IMG/VR virus record: IMGVR_UViG_2563366846_000009
Strand: one strand, 5' to 3'
Source of the DNA: a virus
Taxonomy: Duplodnaviria > Heunggongvirae > Uroviricota > Caudoviricetes
Length of the DNA stretch: 25,833 nt
The notes beneath the pieces are model-generated. The model searched no databases and was not told where the DNA came from. It saw only the letters and a list, made by a program, of their open reading frames with translations. The position numbers and the translations under genes are program-made. This document shows positions 11,508 through 25,833 of the stretch, piece by piece; position 1 is the stretch's first letter, and each line of letters opens with the position of its first letter.

Positions 11508-12553
11508 TGAGCAGAAAAAATAAAAAAGTGCGCATGAGTTCACGCATTGATCTCGCTGATGTGCTCAGGAAAGAATCGTCGCTCAGTGCATTCACATTTG
11601 ATGGTCCTTACCGCCTGACCGGGCATGATTTGCTGGACAATATGTACTGTGCTGATAACGGTCGGTGGTATGAAACCCCGGTGGACTGGTACGGTCTGGC
11701 AAGAGCAGCCCGGCAAACGTCCTGGCATCAGTCTGCGCTTTACTTTAAGCGTAATGTATTGCTCGGTTGCTATATTCCGCACCCGCTGCTTTCCCGGCAG
11801 GATTTCTCGGCGCTGGCGCTGGACTGGTTTGTGTTCGGTAACGCATTCCTTGAGCTTCGAAGCAATATGCTCGGCGAACCACTTAAATTACGGCACGCCC
11901 TGGCGAAATACATGCGACGCGGAAGCGATCTTGAATCATGGTGGTATGTGCAGGATGGCAAGGACGCGTTTCAGTTTCGCCCTGGCAAAGTGTGCCACCT
12001 GATGAATCCTGACATTAACCAGGAAATCTACGGCATGCCGGAATATCTCGGCGCATTACTCTCGGCCAGCCTGTCTCATTCGGCGGACATGTTCAGAAAA
12101 CTGTATTACGACAACGGCTCCCACGCCGGGTGCATCATCTACATCGGTGCAGCGCAGGTAAGCCGCGAAAGCATGGACTCCCTGAAGGAAACGCTACAGG
12201 GTGCGCGTGGTGGTGGTGCATTTAAAAACGTGCTCATTCATGCGCCCAACGGGGGCAAAGAGGGGGTGCAAATTTTGCCGTTCCAGCAGATCACCGCAAA
12301 GGATGAGTTCATGAATGTTAAGGCGGCATCCCGTGATGATGTGCTGGCTGCGCACCGCGTTCCGCCGCAACTGATGGGGGCGATGCCGGGTGAAAAAAGT
12401 GCGTTTGGTGATGTGGAGAAGGCCGCGCGGGTTTACGCAATTAACGAGCTGATGCCCGTCATGGAGGCCATGAAGCACATCAATGACTGGCTTGGCGAAG
12501 AGGTGATCCGTTTTAACTCTTATGCACTTCTTGATGAAAAAACAGCCCCGTGA
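11507..12553 (+). CDS. Q: Portal protein Q
   Basis: 348-aa ORF overlapping the P stop by one base, size and position of P2 gpQ. Confidence 0.9.
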   Translation: MSRKNKKVRMSSRIDLADVLRKESSLSAFTFDGPYRLTGHDLLDNMYCADNGRWYETPVDWYGLARAARQTSWHQSALYFKRNVLLGCYIPHPLLSRQDFSALALDWFVFGNAFLELRSNMLGEPLKLRHALAKYMRRGSDLESWWYVQDGKDAFQFRPGKVCHLMNPDINQEIYGMPEYLGALLSASLSHSADMFRKLYYDNGSHAGCIIYIGAAQVSRESMDSLKETLQGARGGGAFKNVLIHAPNGGKEGVQILPFQQITAKDEFMNVKAASRDDVLAAHRVPPQLMGAMPGEKSAFGDVEKAARVYAINELMPVMEAMKHINDWLGEEVIRFNSYALLDEKTAP

Positions 12554-12570
12554 TGGGGCTGTCCTTTTTA
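12540..12570. terminator. Bidirectional intrinsic terminator between convergent Q and the 174-aa gene
   Basis: Hairpin cagccccgtgatggggctg flanked by an A-run upstream and tccttttta downstream, so it reads as stem plus U-tract on both strands. The Q stop codon sits in the loop. Confidence 0.6.
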
Positions 12571-13092
12571 CCAGAGTTGAACCATTTTCTGGGTGCCGTC
12601 AGGCTTGAGATTATCAATTTCAGAGAGAACGTAATATTGAATGGCTTCACAAACGGTGGTGTATGGTGAATTACCTTCTTTAAGTGGCACGATATTATTA
12701 TTAACGCGAACCTGTATTTCATCGTTATACATTGCGATCGAAAGAGGAGTATGTACGAACGCGACTTCGCCAGGTGTGTCGTCAACCACTGTCTCAATGC
12801 TAAAAGTCAGTTTTCGCTCATCATTGCTGCCTCTTGCTTTGGGGGTTGCGGCAGGAATCTGGGATAAAGGCATTCTGCGAAATCCTTCGGCCGTTTCCAG
12901 TCCGCATGAAACGTAATGCTGGCGATTACCGTCGATATCTGTCCACGCTTGTGACGGCAGATCCAGCGAGATTTCATAAGCATCAACAATTCCCTGGGCA
13001 AGGCGTACAAGCGGGGTCAGGTCTTCATTGCGGCGAAAGCTCTCCTTTACCTGCTCTCGTTTTTCTCTTAACTGCTTGTAATTAATGACCAT
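12568..13092 (-). CDS. Hypothetical 174-aa protein, low-GC cargo gene next to the portal
   Basis: ORF with ATG at 13092 preceded by GGAGG at 8-nt spacing; the track extends it to a GTG at 13131. No recognisable motif. Markedly AT-richer than flanking phage genes. Confidence 0.55.
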   Translation of the reverse strand: MVINYKQLREKREQVKESFRRNEDLTPLVRLAQGIVDAYEISLDLPSQAWTDIDGNRQHYVSCGLETAEGFRRMPLSQIPAATPKARGSNDERKLTFSIETVVDDTPGEVAFVHTPLSIAMYNDEIQVRVNNNIVPLKEGNSPYTTVCEAIQYYVLSEIDNLKPDGTQKMVQLW

Positions 13093-13193
13093 AAGACAGC
13101 CTCCATTGATTTCTTTGCTCGTATTTTGCACTTATGAAGTGTGGTCGGCAAGGTGTCGCATCACTGACGCGCTTCGCTTGTCTGCTGCTTCGC

Positions 13194-13216
13194 CGGGGCA
13201 TAAAAAATTTATGCCC
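13194..13216. other. Perfect 10-bp-stem hairpin upstream of the 174-aa gene
   Basis: ggggcataaa aaa tttatgcccc, about 100 bp upstream of the start at 13092. No adjacent T-run on either strand. Confidence 0.4.
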
Positions 13217-13504
13217 CGACTCTCCAGCTCCTGTATCAATCAGATAATTTCACAACGCCTTCCAGCTTATCGCCATCATCGACGGCCAGGCTCTTACGCA
13301 ATCCCACCGCGCTGACTGCATGTTCTCGCCGCCTCAGTGCGATTTTGACGGCCTTATCTGTCACCCCATCAAATCAAAAGCCCTCACGTCTTTTTCACGC
13401 TCAGCGTGAGAAAGACAGCCATTCTGTTGTGTCGCTGCGACATCGTTCAGGGAATGCTATTTACCCCCTGAAACGCGGGCTGTTCCCCCGTCACCTGCGC
13501 GCAG

Positions 13505-13624
13505 AAAAAACGCGTTTTTTTGTGCATGCACGGATCCTTGACGGATCCAGCCGCCATGCGGGCCGGAAGGGTAAAAAGTCGTTCAAAAAAATTGTGCAAA
13601 TTTGTGCACTATTGTGCATTGAAA
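13505..13624. promoter_or_regulatory. Cluster of palindromes and 10-bp-phased TTGTGCA direct repeats in a 520-bp non-coding region
   Basis: Palindrome aaaaaacgcgtttttt (13505..13520), palindrome gtgcatgcac (13522..13531), ggatcc-N4-ggatcc (13532..13547), then TTGTGCA at 13593, 13603 and 13613. Confidence 0.45.
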
Positions 13625-13650
13625 TAAACGCCCTGGAGGAGGGCGTTTTA
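13624..13650 (-). terminator. Intrinsic terminator downstream of the 135-aa gene
   Basis: Stem aacgccct / agggcgtt with loop ggagg directly after the stop at 13652; minus strand continues tttatttc. Confidence 0.55.
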
Positions 13651-13651
13651 C

Positions 13652-14059
13652 TTATCTTTTATAGCCTTGCCCCTTCCTGGCCAGCGCCCTGATGGCCGGG
13701 CGTGCCAACACCATATTTTGGCAATGATGAATTGCCCGGCAAAATTCATCTCTACCCATTGGATGCTCAACTGGCAACGTTAAATACAGGTTCCATGCGT
13801 CGCCTAAAAGTTGGGCTATCTTTTGTTCTTCAGATGTCAGCAAGCAAGCGGTATCCGTAAAATAATCATACTTTTCATGTATGTTATTTAACGGTTTTGT
13901 CTGTAGTGCAGCCTGAGCTATACGGTATGCCTGAAGCATACTGGCGTCGTTGATATCCATTCCGAACGGAATTTCTGATGATTGTGACTCTGCATCTTCA
14001 AGCCTGGCAATTTCTTTACGTAAGAAGTATTTCAACTCTTGTTTCTGTTTTCTGTTCAT
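13652..14059 (-). CDS. Hypothetical 135-aa protein, translationally coupled to the ClpX-zinc-finger gene
   Basis: ATG overlaps the upstream stop (ATGA at 14056..14059). Low GC. No recognisable motif. Confidence 0.6.
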
Positions 14060-14388
14060 GCGTTTTTTTCCTTTTTGTCTGTCACTTCTTTCCTGATAAT
14101 TTCATTGCACAAATCCACGCACTCATTGCAGATGTAAACAGACGGTCCGGCAATCACCTTTGTGACTTCGTACTGGGATTTATTGCAGAAACTGCAATAA
14201 ACCGTCTTCTCGCCTGAAGTCCATGTTTTGCTGGTTTCGCCAGACATCAGTTGTTTGAGGTCTTTTTCACGACGAAGAACTATCTGGCCACATTCAGCTA
14301 TTTTTTGGATGTTGACATTTTCTTCTTTCGCCAGCGCTTCCATCCGCTCAATCAGTCGCTGCGCTTTTTCTCTGTCAATGTGTTGCAT
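14056..14388 (-). CDS. Small protein with C-terminal ClpX-type C4 zinc-binding domain
   Basis: Residues [38 protein letters not shown] are near-identical to the ClpX N-terminal zinc-binding domain, with all four Cys conserved. No AAA+ module follows; the first about 55 aa are unrelated. Confidence 0.85.
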
Positions 14389-14653
14389 TGTGTCCCCCTT
14401 GTTTATGTTCCCGGGTTAAAGTCATCAGGGCGGATGCGCCCTGATGTTGTGTTATTCGGGAAATAACGCCCGGATATTTCCGGCCATCTGACTGGTTATC
14501 TGTGCGGTTGGTACTGGCTGTGACACGGGGCGTTCTGTCCTACAATCAACCTCAGAGCATGGGCTATCCGGGATGGCCTCATACCACGCCAGCGTCGACT
14601 GATAGTTTTGTGCTGCCTCACGCAGTGCCTGGTAATTAATTTCGCTCACTGGT
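14389..14653. repeat. Copy B of a duplicated module (block P 14389..14541 plus block G 14542..14653)
   Basis: Block P is about 93 percent identical to 15601..15756 (3' end of parR, intergenic hairpin, RBS and ATG of the next gene). Block G is about 90 percent identical to 15493..15603 (5' end of the 213-aa gene). Block order is swapped relative to copy A. Confidence 0.75.
14452..14649 (-). CDS. Small chimeric ORF (65 aa from a GTG start): conserved SEINYQALREAAQNYQSTLAWYEAI motif fused to a ParR-like C-terminal tail
   Basis: GTG at 14649 is preceded by GGAGG at 6-nt spacing. The N-terminal 25 aa match the 213-aa protein exactly despite six synonymous DNA changes. The C-terminal 27 aa (ERPVSQPVPTAQITSQMAGNIRALFPE) match the ParR-like protein tail. 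The track calls a longer 98-aa version from 14748. Confidence 0.4.
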   Translation of the reverse strand: MSEINYQALREAAQNYQSTLAWYEAIPDSPCSEVDCRTERPVSQPVPTAQITSQMAGNIRALFPE

Positions 14654-14965
14654 TGCCTCCTGTTTGAATCTGCGCACGGAAAGAATTGGGCATTTTGTAA
14701 TCCCGCCCTCTTTCTCCCATCGGAGGAGCGGGAATCGATATGCTTCAAAATTAAGCCCCGCAGAGCGATCGCTTTGGAAGCATTTCTTACCTACCACCCA
14801 AACGTTTTCGAATCGACGCTCAATGCGAACTGCCGTCCTCCATCCGAATGGCGCGCCTGCATTTACGGCTGCATTTTTTGTCGGAAAAGTTGGCACGGAT
14901 GACACAATTTCATCAACACGCACGCTTAGGTGGCAATCGTCGACATAACTAATTGAAGCTCTCAT
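14636..14965 (-). CDS. Hypothetical 109-aa protein, coupled to the 213-aa gene
   Basis: ATG at 14965 overlaps the 213-aa stop (ATGA). No recognisable motif. Confidence 0.5.
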   Translation of the reverse strand: MRASISYVDDCHLSVRVDEIVSSVPTFPTKNAAVNAGAPFGWRTAVRIERRFENVWVVGKKCFQSDRSAGLNFEAYRFPLLRWEKEGGITKCPILSVRRFKQEATSERN

Positions 14966-15603
14966 GACTGAACTCCTTTGCGAAGCTGCTCCGCACAATG
15001 CAGCAGGGCGTCCGTCGCTTCTTTCACCGTAACGATGTCGCCATCGTCCAGCCCGGCAACCGTCGCGTCCTTAACGAACACCGAGCAAAGGTCATTAAAC
15101 GCCTGCGCTCGTACTTCAGCCAGAAAAGCATTGGTGGCTGGGGTTTCCGGCAATAATCCGCCAACCAGTTCTATTTCTGTTCTGAACCGGGAACTAGACA
15201 CAACGCGATAAGTCAGGTTCGGCATTCTGGCTGCCACTTGCATCTCAAACTCCTCTCCAGATTCCAGCCCGGCTTCATGGGCGTAATCAAGCGGGCTTCT
15301 GACAGGCTCTGAAGCTTCGCCGCCCCAGTAAATCAGGTTCGACTTCAGCCCTGCATTCTCCGCAGCCAGCACCGCAAGATTAGCCTCCAGCTCTGCAATA
15401 CGCTTGTTTTGGGCTTCCCGCTCATCCAGCAGCTCGGCGATAATGTCCATTTCCTGATGACGGATTTGACGCTTAAACGCCGCCACTGCTTCGCTACAAT
15501 CCTGCTCAGCATTTGGGTTATCCGTGATGGCCTCATACCACGCCAGCGTCGATTGATAGTTTTGTGCCGCCTCACGTAATGCCTGATAGTTGATTTCGCT
15601 CAT
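14962..15603 (-). CDS. Hypothetical 213-aa protein with conserved N-terminal motif and central coiled-coil-like region
   Basis: ATG preceded by AAGGAG. Heptad-like stretch REAQNKRIAELEANLAVLAAENAGLKSNL and an acidic C-terminal half. Possible resemblance to Ead/Ea22-like prophage proteins is unverified. Confidence 0.65.
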   Translation of the reverse strand: MSEINYQALREAAQNYQSTLAWYEAITDNPNAEQDCSEAVAAFKRQIRHQEMDIIAELLDEREAQNKRIAELEANLAVLAAENAGLKSNLIYWGGEASEPVRSPLDYAHEAGLESGEEFEMQVAARMPNLTYRVVSSSRFRTEIELVGGLLPETPATNAFLAEVRAQAFNDLCSVFVKDATVAGLDDGDIVTVKEATDALLHCAEQLRKGVQS

Positions 15604-15756
15604 TATGTCGTTCTCCTTGTTTATGCTCTGAGGTGGAGATCAGGACGAACTCGCCCTGACGTTGTGTTATTCAGGAAATAACGCCCGGATATTTTCAGCC
15701 ATCTGACTGGTTATCTGTGCGGTTGGTGCTGGCTGTGACACGGGGCGTTCCGTCCT
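15493..15756. repeat. Copy A of the duplicated module (block G 15493..15603, block P 15601..15756)
   Basis: Counterpart of 14389..14653; includes the imperfect hairpin caggacgaactcgccctg just after the parR stop. Confidence 0.75.
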
Positions 15757-15978
15757 GTTTTGTGTCACTGATAACGCCTCATCGTCAGCCCATGCAGCCA
15801 GTCGGTAAGCCTCTGCCGGATTCATTTTCAGAAGTGCCAGCCCGGCCATAAAAGCCACGCGTTGACCGCTTTTGTGGGCTTCTGGTGTAAGGCTGTCCAG
15901 CCAGGCGCATGCTTCGCCTTCGTTCTTGACGGCGGCGGGCTTCAGATAGAAACTTATCCTCCTGGTTGATGTCGCCAT
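15667..15978 (-). CDS. parR: ParR-like partition adaptor
   Basis: ATG at 15978 sits 4 nt after the parM stop with AAGGAG upstream. The 103-aa product aligns by eye with plasmid R1 ParR (ISFYLKP..., AGLAL..., C-terminal NIRALFPE versus ILRSLFPKE). The track shows a longer ORF from 16113. Confidence 0.7.
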   Translation of the reverse strand: MATSTRRISFYLKPAAVKNEGEACAWLDSLTPEAHKSGQRVAFMAGLALLKMNPAEAYRLAAWADDEALSVTQNRTERPVSQPAPTAQITSQMAENIRALFPE

Positions 15979-15982
15979 TGAT

Positions 15983-16942
15983 TTACTCCTTGTCCATTGC
16001 GTGCAGCCCATTAACCAGAGCAAACTGTGGCACCCCGTCCGCAATGAAAGTCGCATTAACTCCGCAGGCTTCGCGGATAGCGGGTGCCACAATCTCCGCT
16101 CCTCCACCGACAACCATCACCCGCCCGTAACCCGAAAAAACCGCCAGCGCGCGGATCACGCGTTGCTTCAGTGTTTCTTCCTTTTCACGAATAACCGCCA
16201 TCAGGCTGGCGTAATGCGCGTCATTGTGGATGTGCTGGCGCAGCCAGGCTTCATCATGGCGATGTTCGATAATGGTATTGGCGATGTGGTGACTGGTGCG
16301 CATACCGTTAGTGGCCATCACCGACAGTACGGCATCGGCCATCAGAGAAACGCCTACGTGTGGATCGCAAAACACCTGGCTGATACCTGCCAGTTGCCCC
16401 TGAACCTTTGCCACATCCAGCGTGGTTCCGCCCAAATCCACAATCAGCAGGGATTCAAACGGACTCATGTCAGCCAGTGCCTTAAAGCCAGCCGGAATGG
16501 ATTCAGGCATAACCCGCACGTTACGGATAGTGAATGCTTCGCCGTTCTGGTACTTCACCGGGCGCATAACGTTCGCTTTTTTGCGGTTGATGTTGGCCAT
16601 GTCCGGCTGTGCGTTTGTGTCGAAATACTCGCTCAGTGGCAGGGTGACAACCACATCCACCTCCTGTGGCGTGATGCCTGATTTGACCAGCGCGTGATGA
16701 ATGGCAATGACATTCACATCACTGTACTGGTATTGCGTGTCGGTTGTCTGGACAAAGCGATCGCTGACCGGATCAAAACCATAGCGCACGCCATCAAGCA
16801 TGTAGTTCGCGGGCTGCGTGCCACCGAACGGCGCAGACCATTCCGACTTGAAGCTGTTCGGGCTGATAGCGTTGCGGCGTTCGCCGTTCTCAGTCCATGC
16901 CAGCTTGATGTTGGTGGAGCCGTCGTCGATACAAATTTTCAT
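15983..16942 (-). CDS. parM: ParM/StbA actin-like partition ATPase
   Basis: 319-aa protein with extensive colinear similarity to R1 ParM: IDDGSTNIKL, ISPNSFK, YSDVNV, HHAL, MPESIPAG, SLLI(V/I)DLGGTTLD, LSGIS, GVSL, GGGAE, LVNG. Confidence 0.9.
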   Translation of the reverse strand: MKICIDDGSTNIKLAWTENGERRNAISPNSFKSEWSAPFGGTQPANYMLDGVRYGFDPVSDRFVQTTDTQYQYSDVNVIAIHHALVKSGITPQEVDVVVTLPLSEYFDTNAQPDMANINRKKANVMRPVKYQNGEAFTIRNVRVMPESIPAGFKALADMSPFESLLIVDLGGTTLDVAKVQGQLAGISQVFCDPHVGVSLMADAVLSVMATNGMRTSHHIANTIIEHRHDEAWLRQHIHNDAHYASLMAVIREKEETLKQRVIRALAVFSGYGRVMVVGGGAEIVAPAIREACGVNATFIADGVPQFALVNGLHAMDKE

Positions 16943-16971
16943 GTCGCTTTTCCTTATGTTGATTAATTAAT

Positions 16972-17086
16972 CGTTTACGGGATTCTGAAATCCCGCTTTT
17001 GCCTGTTTTGTGCGCGCTTCATATATCGCGGCACGTTTTTTGCTCATTTACGGGATTTGTGAATCCCGTTTTTGTCTGTTTTTTGT
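16972..17086. repeat. Two tandem about 40-bp repeats, each a 7-bp-stem hairpin plus T-tract, between the parM start and the A stop
   Basis: R1 at 16972..17012 (cgggatt ctga aatcccg, then cttttgcctgttttgtg) and R2 at 17044..17086 (cgggatt tgtg aatcccg, then tttttgtctgttttttg). R2 lies inside the last about 22 codons of the A ORF. Confidence 0.6.
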
Positions 17087-19841
17087 TTCCACTGGTCAGG
17101 CCACCCCGCAGCAGGTCTGCTTTGCGGCGGGCGCGTTCAGTGGTTTCACTGATTCTCTGTGTGTGCTCTGCGTCGCGGATGGCGCGCAGCATGTCAGAAA
17201 GCACGGTAACGGGGGTTTTCATGGTGTTCTGGCCCTGCTGAAGTGTGGATGCCAGGCGTGCGGCGGCTTCAGGGGCTGATGCCCCCAGCTGTTCCAGATA
17301 GCTGGCGACCGGGTTATGGCGGATCTCCGTGCTGCTTACGCCGTGATTGCGGCTCAGGCGCTGCCAGAGCTGCGTGATTCGGCTGTCCTGGCGGGTATCC
17401 GGTTTGCGTACAATTTCAAATCCCTGCGGTGCAATGATGCTGCCGTCAACGTACAGACTGCCGCCCCGTAACAGGTGCTGCATCTGCTGTTCACCGATAT
17501 GCAGGCCGAGAGATTCAGCAGACTCCCGCCATTCTTTAGCGAGTAATTCGTGGTTATCAGGCAAAGTCCGCTGCTGTTTGCGGCTCTGTGTCCAGCTCTG
17601 CATTTCATCACTGCTGTTTTTTGCCTGTTTGTCACGAAGCGAACGCATCAGCGTCCGGCGTTCGTGCCGTTTCAGTGAGCGCATCCATTCGTTCACTTCA
17701 ACGCCGTCAGGGAGCTGCGGCCACGGTGCTGACCGTTCTTCCGGCTGTTCTGTCCCGTTGTTGTCCGTTTCCTGTACACGAGGACAGTTATTGCCACGAG
17801 TCCAAGGGGCGGCAGGGCCGCCCTGAAGGTCAAAACCATTTTCGCGGGCGCTGTCTTCCGCTTCCGGTTTACGTCTTACCAGCTTCCAGTTATCCGGATG
17901 CGTGCACACACGGGAGGATTCCCCGATGAGTGGTGACCAGATCCCGTAAATCTGTACGCTCTGTTCGCCGTAATCGTTCAGCTCATCTGCGAGGTCGTAG
18001 GCGGTGCGAATCAGGTAGTCTTTACGTGGAACAAGTACGCCACCCTGTTTTTCAATGTAGGTGGCAAAACACCCGGCATCAGCGGCAGCAAGAACCGCAT
18101 CCATTGCGTCATCCTTCAGCCGTTGCGGGCCTTCCGGGTTGCGTGCCATCTGGCTGGCAAGGCGGCGCAGTTCACGCCACACCTGACGGGAGGGGATGCC
18201 AAAGAACTGGAACTGGCGGACCCGGTGAAGGCGCGCCCAGCCGATGGCGCGCTCCACGCTCTCGGCCATTGATTTTCCGGTTTCGTGGTCAACGCGTGGT
18301 TTGCCCGTTTTCGGGTCGATGCCATCCACGGCGCGGCTGTCCAGGTTCTTTCCGATGTAGGTGGCGATGTAGCTGGTTGGCGTGCCTTTTGAGCCGTCGA
18401 CATACTCCGCCTTAAAGCGCGGAGTTATGTCATTGCCCAGCTCGTGGCGGTCTTCGCGAATGGCAATATCACGGGTGATGTCCACGATGCTGTCGATTTC
18501 TTCAGGATGTGCAAAGACCATCATGTGCCAGTGCACCGTGCCTTCATGATGAGGCTCCGCCGTGCGGATGCCATACCAGCGCAGGCCGTCGCGGTTCAGT
18601 TTTTTGCGGACCGCCGCAAAAAACGTGTTAACCAGGTAATCGCTGGAGTCGCGCATGGTGGCCCCGTTCCATTTGGGGTTCGGATGACCGTTCTCCGTTG
18701 TTGCGTGGTATTTTGACGGGCAGGTGACAGTCAGAAACACCGCTTTGTCACCACGGGCTTCGGCCAGAAGTTCCAGCCCCTTCATGGTGGCCATCATTTC
18801 TGCCTTACGGTGAACCGGGTTACTTACTCCCGCGTAATACACTGTCTCGAGATCAATCGTGAACCCGTCTTCATTTTCCAGCATGAAACTTTTCAGGAAA
18901 TCGCGTGTTTTCTCGCGCTGTGCGCGAAACTCGCTTAACGCGTCCTGGCTCAGATAGGGTGATGTTTTTCTGGAAACCAGACAGGCGGCGCGGAGTTGTT
19001 CTTCCCGCCACTCACAACGTAACAGCCACAGTTTTCGTTTCCACCATTCCGCACAGGTCAGGCGAAGGATTGCGCCCGGCAGCAGCTCCGTGTCCGGTTC
19101 GTTCCTCTGGTCTTTGTCTGTTGTCAGTGCGTCATAATGTGGAGGCATGGCGTGCAGGTGTAACGCCATGCGGGCCAGCATCTGATACGCCTTCAGGGTT
19201 ACATCCATGGTCAGCTCGCCATCGGTCGCGCCAAAGCCATCGCAGAGTTTTTCGAAGGTGCTGCTGAACATCGCCGCCGTCATGGTGGCCAGCGTCTGTA
19301 TCTGGTGCTTGTTGAGCTGCGGCAGGTAAAGCAAATCGTCCAGGCGTTCGCGTCCGGCAAGGGAGCGATAACCCGGTGTCAGCCAGCGGCTGTCGGTGCG
19401 GTCCAGACGTTCGAATATTTTGCGCAGGGTTCCGCGTGCATAGCGTTCCGCCTGCCAGCTCTTTTTGCCTTTCCGGCGATCGGCTTCCTGTTTTTTGCGC
19501 AGGAAGGAGAGGTGGCGAATAAGCGGATCGCGCAGATAGGACGGCAGCAGGCGCAGCGAGGCCATGGCTTCATCCACCGCACCGCGTGCCTGTTTTCTGG
19601 CGTCTCCTGCCAGTGTGATGGTTTTGTCCTGTTTTTCCTGTGCGTCCAGGCTTTTATTAATCAGGTTGCCCAGCGGCGTGGCGGAGAACGCCGCATCAGC
19701 CATTTCCTGGCGGCGCTCGTTCTCTGCCCGGTAGGCATCCAGCCAGGAGGAAAGCGCGGATTCAGGAGCGGGGATCCCCGTTCCTTCACGCCCGACTGCG
19801 TGGCGCGGTTGTTGCCAGTCCCTGATGTACTCTGCCGTCAT
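17019..19841 (-). CDS. A: Replication initiator A (rolling-circle, HUH-type)
   Basis: 940-aa ORF containing EPHHEGTVHWHMMVF and YIATYIGKN, matching conserved P2 gpA motifs. True start may be internal; the ORF is longer than P2 gpA. Confidence 0.85.
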   Translation of the reverse strand: MTAEYIRDWQQPRHAVGREGTGIPAPESALSSWLDAYRAENERRQEMADAAFSATPLGNLINKSLDAQEKQDKTITLAGDARKQARGAVDEAMASLRLLPSYLRDPLIRHLSFLRKKQEADRRKGKKSWQAERYARGTLRKIFERLDRTDSRWLTPGYRSLAGRERLDDLLYLPQLNKHQIQTLATMTAAMFSSTFEKLCDGFGATDGELTMDVTLKAYQMLARMALHLHAMPPHYDALTTDKDQRNEPDTELLPGAILRLTCAEWWKRKLWLLRCEWREEQLRAACLVSRKTSPYLSQDALSEFRAQREKTRDFLKSFMLENEDGFTIDLETVYYAGVSNPVHRKAEMMATMKGLELLAEARGDKAVFLTVTCPSKYHATTENGHPNPKWNGATMRDSSDYLVNTFFAAVRKKLNRDGLRWYGIRTAEPHHEGTVHWHMMVFAHPEEIDSIVDITRDIAIREDRHELGNDITPRFKAEYVDGSKGTPTSYIATYIGKNLDSRAVDGIDPKTGKPRVDHETGKSMAESVERAIGWARLHRVRQFQFFGIPSRQVWRELRRLASQMARNPEGPQRLKDDAMDAVLAAADAGCFATYIEKQGGVLVPRKDYLIRTAYDLADELNDYGEQSVQIYGIWSPLIGESSRVCTHPDNWKLVRRKPEAEDSARENGFDLQGGPAAPWTRGNNCPRVQETDNNGTEQPEERSAPWPQLPDGVEVNEWMRSLKRHERRTLMRSLRDKQAKNSSDEMQSWTQSRKQQRTLPDNHELLAKEWRESAESLGLHIGEQQMQHLLRGGSLYVDGSIIAPQGFEIVRKPDTRQDSRITQLWQRLSRNHGVSSTEIRHNPVASYLEQLGASAPEAAARLASTLQQGQNTMKTPVTVLSDMLRAIRDAEHTQRISETTERARRKADLLRGGLTSGNKKQTKTGFTNPVNEQKTCRDI

Positions 19842-23937: not shown

Positions 23938-24192
23938 TTATGCTGCTTTACCGCTGATGTTTCTGTTTCGTCTGCCACTTGTTGGCTTAAACAAAAACAG
24001 ACGGTTTTCCCAGTCGTGCCATTCCTGAGGTGCGTTTTCGATGAGGCGATCGCATGCTTCATCCCACGCTTTTCTGTTGATGTAGAGTTCAGCGTTTCCG
24101 CCTGGCTTGAGAGGGTCCGCCATATACACCGCAGGTAGCTTTCCTGCTTTTGCCATGCTTACGATGGCATCAACGGTCTTTCCGATATACAT
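23938..24192 (-). CDS. cox: Cox-like excisionase/early regulator; N-terminal extent uncertain
   Basis: Core (E)GFAMYIGKTVDAIVSMAKAGKLPAVYMADP aligns with the P2 Cox HTH region. ATG at 24192 has GAAGGA upstream. The same frame stays open to 24402, and a 73-aa ORF in another frame (24159..24380) lies upstream. Confidence 0.6.
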   Translation of the reverse strand: MYIGKTVDAIVSMAKAGKLPAVYMADPLKPGGNAELYINRKAWDEACDRLIENAPQEWHDWENRLFLFKPTSGRRNRNISGKAA

Positions 24193-24402
24193 CGCAAATC
24201 CTTCTTTTGACAGAAGATGCGAGGGATTTTCTGAAAGTCGAATTTCTTCACGTTCACGTGCTTTGCGTCCTGTTTTTTGATGCTCCCCCTCTGGCATTTC
24301 TGACAGGTGATCGCATCGTGTTCCGCAAAGTGACTCAGGCGCGTTTTGAGTGCTTTCTTGCATCTGATATCCTCCGCCATTGGTGCTCTTTCTAATTGGC
24401 AC

Positions 24403-24477
24403 TAGTTGGAACCACTTAGAACATTTGTTTGCTGTTCATATGTGGTGTTAATCTACACATATGTAGGAGTTTGTCAA
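24403..24477. promoter_or_regulatory. Divergent early/repressor promoter-operator region between cox and C
   Basis: 75-bp gap between divergent genes containing catATGTGgtgttaatctacacATATGTAgg (ATATGT repeats about two helical turns apart, plus a 7-bp inverted repeat). Confidence 0.5.
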
Positions 24478-24771
24478 ATGGACATTCCTCAAAAAATTCG
24501 CGTCATGCGCAAATCTGAAGATCTCACTCAGCGGGAATTCGCTGATATGATTGGAATTTCTTATTCTGCTCTGACCAGTTATGAGTATGGTCGTAACCTT
24601 CCTGGCCTTGAGATCACTATCAAGCTTTTCAAGCATCCGAGATTTTCTAAATACCGCGACTGGTTTCTGTTTGATGAAGTTGAACCCAAGGCCGGGCAGG
24701 TTGTACCGGCTCTCGCACACATTGGGCAAGACGAAGCGGAATCATCCCGCTCCGGCAAGAAGACTGGTTAA
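24478..24771 (+). CDS. C: Immunity repressor C (P2 type)
   Basis: 97-aa protein (IRVMRKSEDLTQREFADMIGISYSALTSYEYGRNLP...ALAHIGQDEAESSRSGKKTG) collinear with P2 C including the identical C-terminal SGxKTG. AGGAG RBS. The track's longer ORF from 24406 would overlap the operator region. Confidence 0.85.
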   Translation: MDIPQKIRVMRKSEDLTQREFADMIGISYSALTSYEYGRNLPGLEITIKLFKHPRFSKYRDWFLFDEVEPKAGQVVPALAHIGQDEAESSRSGKKTG

Positions 24772-24837
24772 CGGTTCACCAGGCATTTATTTCCCAGAGC
24801 TGTGATCAAGATGATGTTTTCATTGGAGGGCTTCCTT

Positions 24838-25833
24838 ATGTCGATTAAGAAGCTCGCTAATGGCAAATTTTGTGTGGACGTGCGGCCTGCTGGATCAGAA
24901 GGAAAGAGATTCAGGCGGCGATTTGATACTCGTGGTGAGGCTGTTTTGTATGAGCGTCATGTATTGCAGCATTACCACGACAAAGACTGGGTTGATAAGC
25001 CAACAGAACGGCGGTCGCTAAGGGAGCTGCTGGATTGTTGGTGGTTGTATCATGGTAAAAATCATCCTTACGGTGCGATGGAGCGAGTGCGTATTGCTGC
25101 GGTCATTAGTGATCTTGAAAGTATTAATGTTACACGCAGTGATCAACTTACTCGTAAAAACATAATTAATTATCGGTTATTGTTGCTTAACCGCGGAATA
25201 AAACAATCCACGGTTAATCGTTATTGCGCAATGATGAGTGGTTTTTTCACAAAACTAATTGACGCAGAGGAATATTCAGGGGCTAATCCGTTTCATGATG
25301 TAAAAAAACTTAATATCAAACAGCCTGAAATGGCTTATTTGTATCATGAAGATATTCCACGATTACTGGAGTTGTTATCTGGTGATGAATTAAAAGCCGT
25401 CTTGTTGTGTCTGGCAACAGGTGGAAGATGGAGTGAAGTTGCAAATATCAAGGGGGAGCATGTTATTAGCGGCAAAGTCATTTTTATGGAAACAAAAAAT
25501 GGGAAGCGTCGCGTTATACCTATATCGTCAGAACTGGAGTGCATGATTAAGACTAAGGCTACTGGTCGTTTAATTTATCCGAGTTATGCTGCTGTCAGAA
25601 CGGCTATCAGAAAGGTGAGGCCCGATCTTCCTGAAGGGCAGTCGATACATGTTTTACGGCATACCTTTGCCACTCACTTCATGATTAATGGCGGGAATAT
25701 CATCACTTTGCAGAGAATACTTGGGCATAGCACTATTCAGCAGACGATGACTTATGCCCATTTTGCACCGGATTATCTGCAGGATGCTGTGCGCTTTAAT
25801 CCTGTGGCTGAGTTGTCCAGATATTGCCCATAA
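24838..25833 (+). CDS. int: Tyrosine integrase (P2 Int-like)
   Basis: Start at MSIKKLANGKF with GGAGG upstream. Near-identical to P2 Int over LRHTFATHFMINGGNIITLQRILGHSTIQQTMTYAHFAPDYLQDA. The stop codon is the last three bases of the window. Confidence 0.9.
   Translation: MSIKKLANGKFCVDVRPAGSEGKRFRRRFDTRGEAVLYERHVLQHYHDKDWVDKPTERRSLRELLDCWWLYHGKNHPYGAMERVRIAAVISDLESINVTRSDQLTRKNIINYRLLLLNRGIKQSTVNRYCAMMSGFFTKLIDAEEYSGANPFHDVKKLNIKQPEMAYLYHEDIPRLLELLSGDELKAVLLCLATGGRWSEVANIKGEHVISGKVIFMETKNGKRRVIPISSELECMIKTKATGRLIYPSYAAVRTAIRKVRPDLPEGQSIHVLRHTFATHFMINGGNIITLQRILGHSTIQQTMTYAHFAPDYLQDAVRFNPVAELSRYCP

Follow-up and report, generated by a model that had tools for sequence, protein, structure and literature searches.

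A partition cassette of the R1 ParMRC family with a candidate two-site centromere in an integrative P2-like phage lineage

Among the known systems, the closest to the locus described here is ParMRC of plasmid R1, the best-understood bacterial spindle, in which cis-acting repeats are followed by parM and then by parR. These repeats comprise two sets of five 11-bp iterons that flank the promoter, and the last 17 residues of R1 ParR form the ParM-binding peptide (PMC3794156). Related functions have also been described on elements that are normally integrated. SrpMRC of the SXT/R391 integrative and conjugative elements (ICEs) is expressed together with excision and replication functions and stabilises the transient circular form, which replicates by a rolling circle (PMC4489591). 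AlpAC-alpS of the Corynebacterium prophage CGP3 is induced early on excision, connects the circular DNA of the phage with filaments, and is required for replication to be efficient (PMC4446434, PMC5539076). In the present study, a cassette of parM and parR was analysed in the IMG/VR virus record IMGVR_UViG_2563366846_000009, a stretch of 25,833 nucleotides assigned to the Caudoviricetes (hereafter the window). It is proposed, with a probability of about one half, that this cassette is a functional R1-type ParMRC system, resident in an integrative P2-like phage lineage (P88-like Xuanwuvirus and relatives) and acting on the circular phage genome. A first-pass annotation, made from the sequence alone, had regarded type II partition systems as belonging to plasmids and plasmid-prophages, a statement that SrpMRC and AlpAC, both carried by integrative elements, show to be too strong.

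The identity of both proteins was established by profile and pairwise comparison, in agreement with the first-pass annotation, which had recognised a ParM/StbA homologue followed 4 nt later by a ParR-like gene. In Pfam, the 319-aa ParM matches PF06406 (StbA_N, E 2.5e-82) and PF21523 (E 2.1e-68) along its entire length. It also matches the R1 ParM structures in PDB (1mwk and others) with an E-value of 3.5e-92, and it is 47% identical to the PDB-derived R1 sequence from end to end. The phosphate-binding and catalytic elements, DDGSTNIK, MPES (containing R1 E148), DLGGTTLD (containing R1 D170), and GGGAE, are unchanged with respect to R1. The start of parR lies 4 nt beyond the stop of parM, and the 103-aa product belongs to PF10784 (Plasmid_stab_B, the ParR/StbB family; E 3e-22). 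In BLASTP, its N-terminal domain aligns with that of R1 ParR at 35% identity over 57 aa (E 3e-8). Both proteins are assigned to PHROG families named "partition protein", ParM to PHROG 691 and ParR to PHROG 2515.

The layout of the phage ParR comprises an invariant N-terminal segment RRISFYLKP, a conserved helical core, a hypervariable linker of which several allele types occur, and a conserved C-terminal tail. The RRISFYLKP segment is the DNA-reading strand in ParR-type ribbon-helix-helix proteins. The tail carries the motif K/R-x-N-I-Q/R-x-F/L-F-P (NIRALFPE in the window), which is kept in all alleles and in orthologues of other genera and lines up with KKNAMKLIN at the C-terminus of R1 ParR. 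A constant tail beside a free-running linker is what a maintained contact between ParR and ParM would look like. In the ParR alleles of loci L003-L082, the first ~18 codons and the C-terminal tail are common while the linkers are unrelated, and in many of these loci nucleotide homology to the window ends inside parR. ParM and the upstream repeats are ~98% constant across the ParR allele types. Judged by the sequences of its two proteins, the locus is a member of the R1-type (type II) ParMRC family, and the ParR tail and the candidate centromere described below are plausible counterparts of those of R1.

With regard to the centromere, the repeats that the first-pass annotation had mentioned upstream of parMR were found to be two 42-nt direct repeats with 81% identity, whose starts are 73 nt apart and of which the distal one sits inside the last codons of gene A. 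Each repeat holds a perfect 18-bp palindrome, CGGGATT-N4-AATCCCG, for which only 0.11 matches would be expected by chance in the window. A scan for this palindrome (at most one mismatch) in 83 related loci, which amount to 950 kb and include whole phage genomes, gave 161 occurrences, exclusively near positions -125 and -52 relative to the parM ATG. Among 60 upstream sequence variants, the changes fall mostly in the 4-nt spacer of the palindrome. A related pair of motifs is present in the orthologues of Hafnia and Plesiomonas, at the same distance from parM and 72-73 bp apart, and in Hafnia and Enterobacter additional ORFs lie between parM and gene A while the repeats still adjoin parM. Since the repeats track parM despite the intervening ORFs, the element belongs to the par module rather than to gene A or its origin. 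The R1 iterons are likewise built of WWCCC cores. The two upstream repeats are the best candidate for parC, with a reduced architecture.

Some further observations concern the same region. In one upstream variant (u53, from a single IMG/VR locus), the segment between the repeats is deleted, leaving a single repeat and an intact parM as a natural one-site version. A third palindrome with two mismatches occurs at 14688-14705, ~1 kb downstream of parR and inside an ORF of PHROG 16670. It was treated as a chance occurrence, and none was seen in the related loci at up to one mismatch. In two plasmid-context relatives (loci L092 and L094), the 200 nt upstream of parM contain two clusters of ~10-bp TATCTC/TTCTC iterons flanking a clear promoter.

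The history of the cassette was traced in 81 related loci from which it could be extracted, comprising IMG/VR contigs and a few annotated genome, phage, and plasmid records. parM is intact in all 81 copies, with a constant length of 319 aa, and is under strong purifying selection: its 69 distinct nucleotide sequences gave a pS of 0.07, a pN of 0.004, and a dN/dS of about 0.06 (0.06-0.08). parR is more variable, with a dN/dS of 0.29. The nearest ParM proteins outside E. coli come from Plesiomonas (63% identity), Hafnia (62%), Serratia (58%), and Enterobacter (54%). In each case the carrier is a P2-like prophage, in which parM is located between gpA and the portal gene and is followed by a parR whose product belongs to PF10784. 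In a neighbour-joining tree of 102 homologues, the ParMs of P2-like prophages form a single clade of 11 tips. Three homologues examined at identities of 53% or less are located beside Rep3 and ParA or Tra genes, i.e., in plasmid or ICE contexts. In addition, the GC3 of parM (0.647) equals that of gpA. The intact copies, the low dN/dS, the separate clade, and the matching GC3 together point to an old, selected phage resident rather than a recent plasmid capture.

The carrier was also characterised. As the first-pass annotation had stated, the window represents an integrase-bearing P2-like phage with a C-type repressor, and gpA, Cox, a helix-turn-helix (HTH) repressor, and a tyrosine integrase are all present (Table 1). 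A derepression protein gene lies beyond gpA and a portal protein gene on the other side of the cassette. The terminase stands beside the portal by annotation of the matching loci, and related loci have annotated capsid and terminase genes of the P2 family in syntenic positions. The 1.5-kb cassette region is 94-97% identical at the nucleotide level to Escherichia phage P88, Xuanwuvirus P884B11, Citrobacter phage phiSM, and other Peduoviridae. Synteny and nucleotide identity thus both assign the carrier to the P2-like temperate phages (Peduoviridae, P88-like Xuanwuvirus). parM starts 76 nt downstream of gpA on the same strand, and gpA, of the P2 type (PF05840), is the sole replication protein identified in the early region, where not every small ORF was examined.

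Table 1. Coordinates of the cassette, its candidate cis-acting sites, and other features in the window
Feature	Position	Strand	Remarks
parM	15983..16942	minus	319-aa actin-fold ATPase, R1 ParM/StbA family
parR	15667..15978	minus	103-aa ribbon-helix-helix adaptor of the ParR family, ATG start
parM leader	16943..16970	minus	Shine-Dalgarno CATAAGGA and conserved TTAATCAA box
Proximal 42-nt repeat, candidate parC site 2	16971..17012	minus	palindrome 16978-16995, 52 nt before the parM ATG
Distal 42-nt repeat, candidate parC site 1	17044..17085	minus	palindrome 17051-17068, 125 nt before the parM ATG
Gene A (gpA)	17019..19841	minus	P2-type rolling-circle replication endonuclease, 940 aa; PF05840 E 7.9e-130
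Cox	23938-24402		P2-like context
HTH repressor, C-like	24406-24771		P2-like context
Tyrosine integrase	24802-25833		P2-like context; open at window end
Displaced second parR 3' end (last 29 codons)	14452..14541	minus	fused to Ead/Ea22 N-terminus; outside the working cassette

The cassette is common and was found in 1307 of 5426 complete E. coli genomes, in which 1453 of its 1455 occurrences are chromosomal. In one related locus (L001), host genes flank the prophage just past the integrase. Most matches in PLSDB lie in prophages carried by very large replicons, or on a linear contig. pZ1323PEC0009-2 departs from this pattern: it is a circular record of 34,461 bp that holds a complete P88-like genome with its integrase. 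A phage identical to it occurs in integrated form in a chromosome, in a strain from the same study. "Escherichia phage 520873" was considered as a further episome and rejected, as it is a linear chromosomal excerpt with the host gene yecA and an IS100 insertion; the phage record named after E. coli strain 503458 was likewise left out of the count of episomes. Integration is the norm, the evidence for an episome is one assembly, and a stable plasmid life is poorly supported.

The first-pass annotation had left a choice between a phage that persists as an episome and a cassette that has been repurposed, between which sequence does not decide. A habitual plasmid lifestyle is disfavoured by the predominantly chromosomal location and the single circular record. 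An acquisition that is recent or decaying is disfavoured by the intact copies, the dN/dS of ~0.06, the separate clade, and the GC3 match. A third reading fits best, in which the cassette would be a working machine that partitions or positions the phage DNA during its transient circular, replicating phase.

The signals that would control expression are few. The Shine-Dalgarno sequence CATAAGGA is common to the phage and R1 parM genes, and the TTAATCAA box of the leader is kept in the window, Hafnia, and Plesiomonas. A scan for consensus sigma-70 promoters found none in 14300-17600, and promoter candidates picked by eye were discarded as weak and not conserved among the variants. The sequence between the repeats, which corresponds to the position of the R1 promoter, is not conserved among the variants either. 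The interval from gene A to parM was free of terminator-like sites on the minus strand. From the gene order, parMR is probably co-transcribed with gene A from an early promoter. Such co-transcription would mean that parMR is made while the phage is extrachromosomal and replicating, and is silent in the repressed lysogen.

These features may be combined into a mechanism. Briefly, parM and parR, lying behind gene A on the early strand, would be transcribed together with gene A after infection or induction. ParR dimers would bind the two palindrome-containing repeats upstream of parM, and the C-terminal tail of ParR would capture the ends of ParM-ATP filaments, whose growth would drive the gpA-made circular genomes of the phage apart or disperse them. 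The products of P2-type replication are circular double-stranded monomers, which resemble plasmids and are suitable substrates. The stage of action would be the extrachromosomal phage, before integration or after excision. As a result, both daughter cells would inherit copies, or replication and packaging would be spatially organised. We infer the binding of ParR to the repeats, the co-transcription with gene A, the formation of filaments, and the benefit to the phage from the sequence features described above.

Comparison with the known systems places the cassette near R1 in sequence and near the systems of integrated elements in setting. R1 ParMRC and the phage locus share the order of cis repeats, parM, and parR, the family of both proteins, the Shine-Dalgarno context, and the WWCCC-type cores of the upstream repeats. 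They differ in that the phage cassette resides in an integrating P2-like phage, directly after a rolling-circle replication gene and without a recognisable promoter of its own, in that two palindromic sites 73 bp apart take the place of the two iteron sets around the R1 promoter, and in the length of ParR (103 aa versus 116-117 aa in R1). SrpMRC is likewise a type II actin-type partition system on a normally integrated element. However, it belongs to an ICE and not to a phage, shares an operon with int, and has in SrpM and SrpR only distant relatives of R1 ParM and ParR, whereas the phage proteins are close ones.

AlpAC is also encoded by an integrated prophage and combines an actin-like filament former with an adaptor whose binding sites lie upstream of its own operon. 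It represents another branch of the actin-like proteins, with an unrelated adaptor, in a large cryptic prophage of a Gram-positive host, and no segregation role has been claimed for it. The resemblance to the phage cassette is one of function and architecture only. Among 50,697 phage records, close ParMs were detected only in P88-like phages and in the P1-like D6, whose ParM is 48% identical. D6 is a 91-kb extrachromosomal plasmid prophage, in which a partition system is expected equipment. By analogy, the phage cassette most likely works like SrpMRC and AlpAC.

Several points weigh against a functional ParMRC system acting on the phage genome. The literature search found no paper on the module. 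P2, 186, and other P2-like phages are not known to have it. Their apparent lack of the module and the absence of other matches among the phage records imply that it is not essential to the P2 life cycle. The candidate centromere consists of two clear sites, compared with ten iterons in R1 and long iteron arrays in the plasmid relatives, and may be too small for a ParR ring. On the plus strand, the repeats of the window (16978-16995 and 17050-17069) score as intrinsic terminators, each with a stem-loop and a T-run behind it, by which antisense transcription could be kept out of gene A. Finally, the timing of expression is taken from gene order alone.

The alternative that survives best is that the cassette aids replication or positioning during the lytic cycle only, in the manner of AlpAC, with filaments that move or anchor replicating DNA and no role in inheritance. 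The CGP3 system has the same architecture, namely an actin-like protein and an adaptor whose sites precede the operon, the position right after gene A is suitable, and a reduced centromere of two sites may suffice for tethering rather than for the capping of a spindle. However, the proteins are close to the R1 segregation machine and not to AlpC, and the ALP_N profile of Pfam reaches 26.0 bits on the phage ParM, slightly below its cut-off of 26.3 bits. A role confined to the lytic cycle appears fairly unlikely, and it overlaps with the proposed segregation system, from which sequence cannot separate it.

It could also be argued that the carrier is a facultative phage-plasmid, maintained for many generations as a low-copy episome (e.g., in hosts without an attachment site) by gpA replication, ParMRC, and, in some variants, a Hok-type toxin. 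The complete genome with integrase in pZ1323PEC0009-2 would agree with such a lifestyle, as would the Hok/Gef or MokW-like genes of related genomes and the membership of the D6 ParM in the same family. Nevertheless, the occurrences in complete E. coli genomes are chromosomal with two exceptions, the remaining plasmid matches are prophages in large replicons or a linear contig, and a single circular assembly can be yielded by spontaneous induction. The normally extrachromosomal state of plasmid-prophages or phage-plasmids of the P1, D6, and N15 type was thus not what was found. These phages also have a dedicated, copy-controlled replicon of the plasmid type, whereas the only replication gene identified here encodes a P2-type rolling-circle initiator. 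On this evidence, long-term episomal maintenance is distinctly unlikely.

Another alternative is that the cassette is cargo (a moron) with no role in the handling of phage DNA, which serves the host or harms competitors, for instance through partition interference with plasmids or co-resident phages. The cassette opens the variable stretch from gene A to the portal gene, in which the accessory genes of P2-like phages are located, the ParR linkers are hypervariable with several allele types, and the cassette was called a fitness factor in the phiSM paper. On the other hand, its place beside gpA is fixed across genera while the downstream genes change, and the cis sites are kept together with the genes. 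No match to a known defence family was found by PADLOC for ParM, ParR, or the neighbouring ORFs. Moreover, the DNA-reading strand of ParR (RRISFYLKP) differs from that of R1 (RRTIAFKLNP), so cross-binding to IncF parC is not expected. A cargo role is accordingly regarded as quite improbable.

Least probable is the view that the repeats are no centromere but RNA hairpins or antisense terminators, which shield gene A from plus-strand read-through and leave parMR without a cis site: both copies do form stem-loops with T-runs on the plus strand, fold better than shuffled sequence (z-scores of -1.1 to -4.1), and have a common arm variant (C to T) that retains a G-U pair in the sense RNA, but the T-to-C change often seen in the site 1 arm has no compensating partner, no Rfam match was found in 12500-17600, the motif occurs nowhere else in the 950 kb of related phage DNA, and the equally spaced Hafnia and Plesiomonas pairs have no T-run after the stem on either strand, or only 4-bp stems, from which it follows that the conserved feature is the DNA motif, as expected of a DNA-binding site.

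Some neighbouring genes deserve mention. A 63-aa ORF at 14452-14643 on the minus strand consists of a 33-aa Ead/Ea22 N-terminus, the last 29 codons of a second parR, and the hairpin that lies downstream of parR. The Ead gene at 14962-15603, which encodes 213 aa, begins almost as the Ead/Ea22 part does, and positions 14400-14541 match the 3' end of parR in UTI89-type prophages at 99.3% identity. The arrangement of 14400-15000 was found, at a coverage of at least 80%, in none of the 5426 complete E. coli genomes. The displaced parR end looks like a recombination scar, which would suggest that the 3' end of parR acts as a junction for the exchange of downstream accessory genes. Further downstream of parR, positions 14056-14388 (minus strand) encode a 110-aa protein with a ClpX-type C4 zinc finger (PF06689, E 6.8e-18), which may mimic or compete with the N-terminal domain of ClpX and whose P88 counterpart is confusingly annotated. 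Outside the window, a type I toxin gene of the Hok/Gef or MokW-like type is present near ogr in related P88-like genomes (L089, 1291-1431; L095, 37476-37583), and represents a second module of the P88-like lineage that is usually associated with plasmid maintenance.

The genes themselves have been annotated before. The records of P88, P884B11, phiSM, and other Peduoviridae already label them as ParM or partition protein, and in E. coli genomes annotated by PGAP they appear as "plasmid segregation protein ParM" and "plasmid partitioning/stability family protein". A full-text literature search yielded nothing on the partition genes of P2-like phages as an object of study. The partition genes are not mentioned in the P88 paper, and the 2019 phiSM paper lists the cassette as a "fitness factor" without a test. 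No functional work on the cassette was found in the literature.

A more specific proposal, which is put forward tentatively and must be considered somewhat doubtful, is that an integrative temperate phage uses an actin-like spindle in its own life cycle, so that circular genomes would be handed to both daughter cells, or organised, in the interval that begins with infection or excision and ends with integration or packaging. In its strongest form, the same proposal would extend to a switch to a plasmid-like carrier state, served by a ParMRC adapted to the phage, which would lack its own promoter and have a minimal centromere of two sites. The precedents of SrpMRC and AlpAC blunt the surprise. 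The cassette would also offer a naturally minimised ParMRC, with a 103-aa ParR and a candidate centromere of two sites, in genetically tractable phages (P88 and phiSM). P88-like prophages are among the commonest in E. coli, including Shiga toxin-producing (STEC) and extraintestinal pathogenic (ExPEC) lineages, and about a quarter of complete genomes carry the cassette. If the proposal is correct, phages that integrate also invest in active DNA segregation or positioning, the efficiency with which lysogeny is established or the phage is lost could be affected, and the line between integrative phages, phage-plasmids, and ICEs would be blurred.

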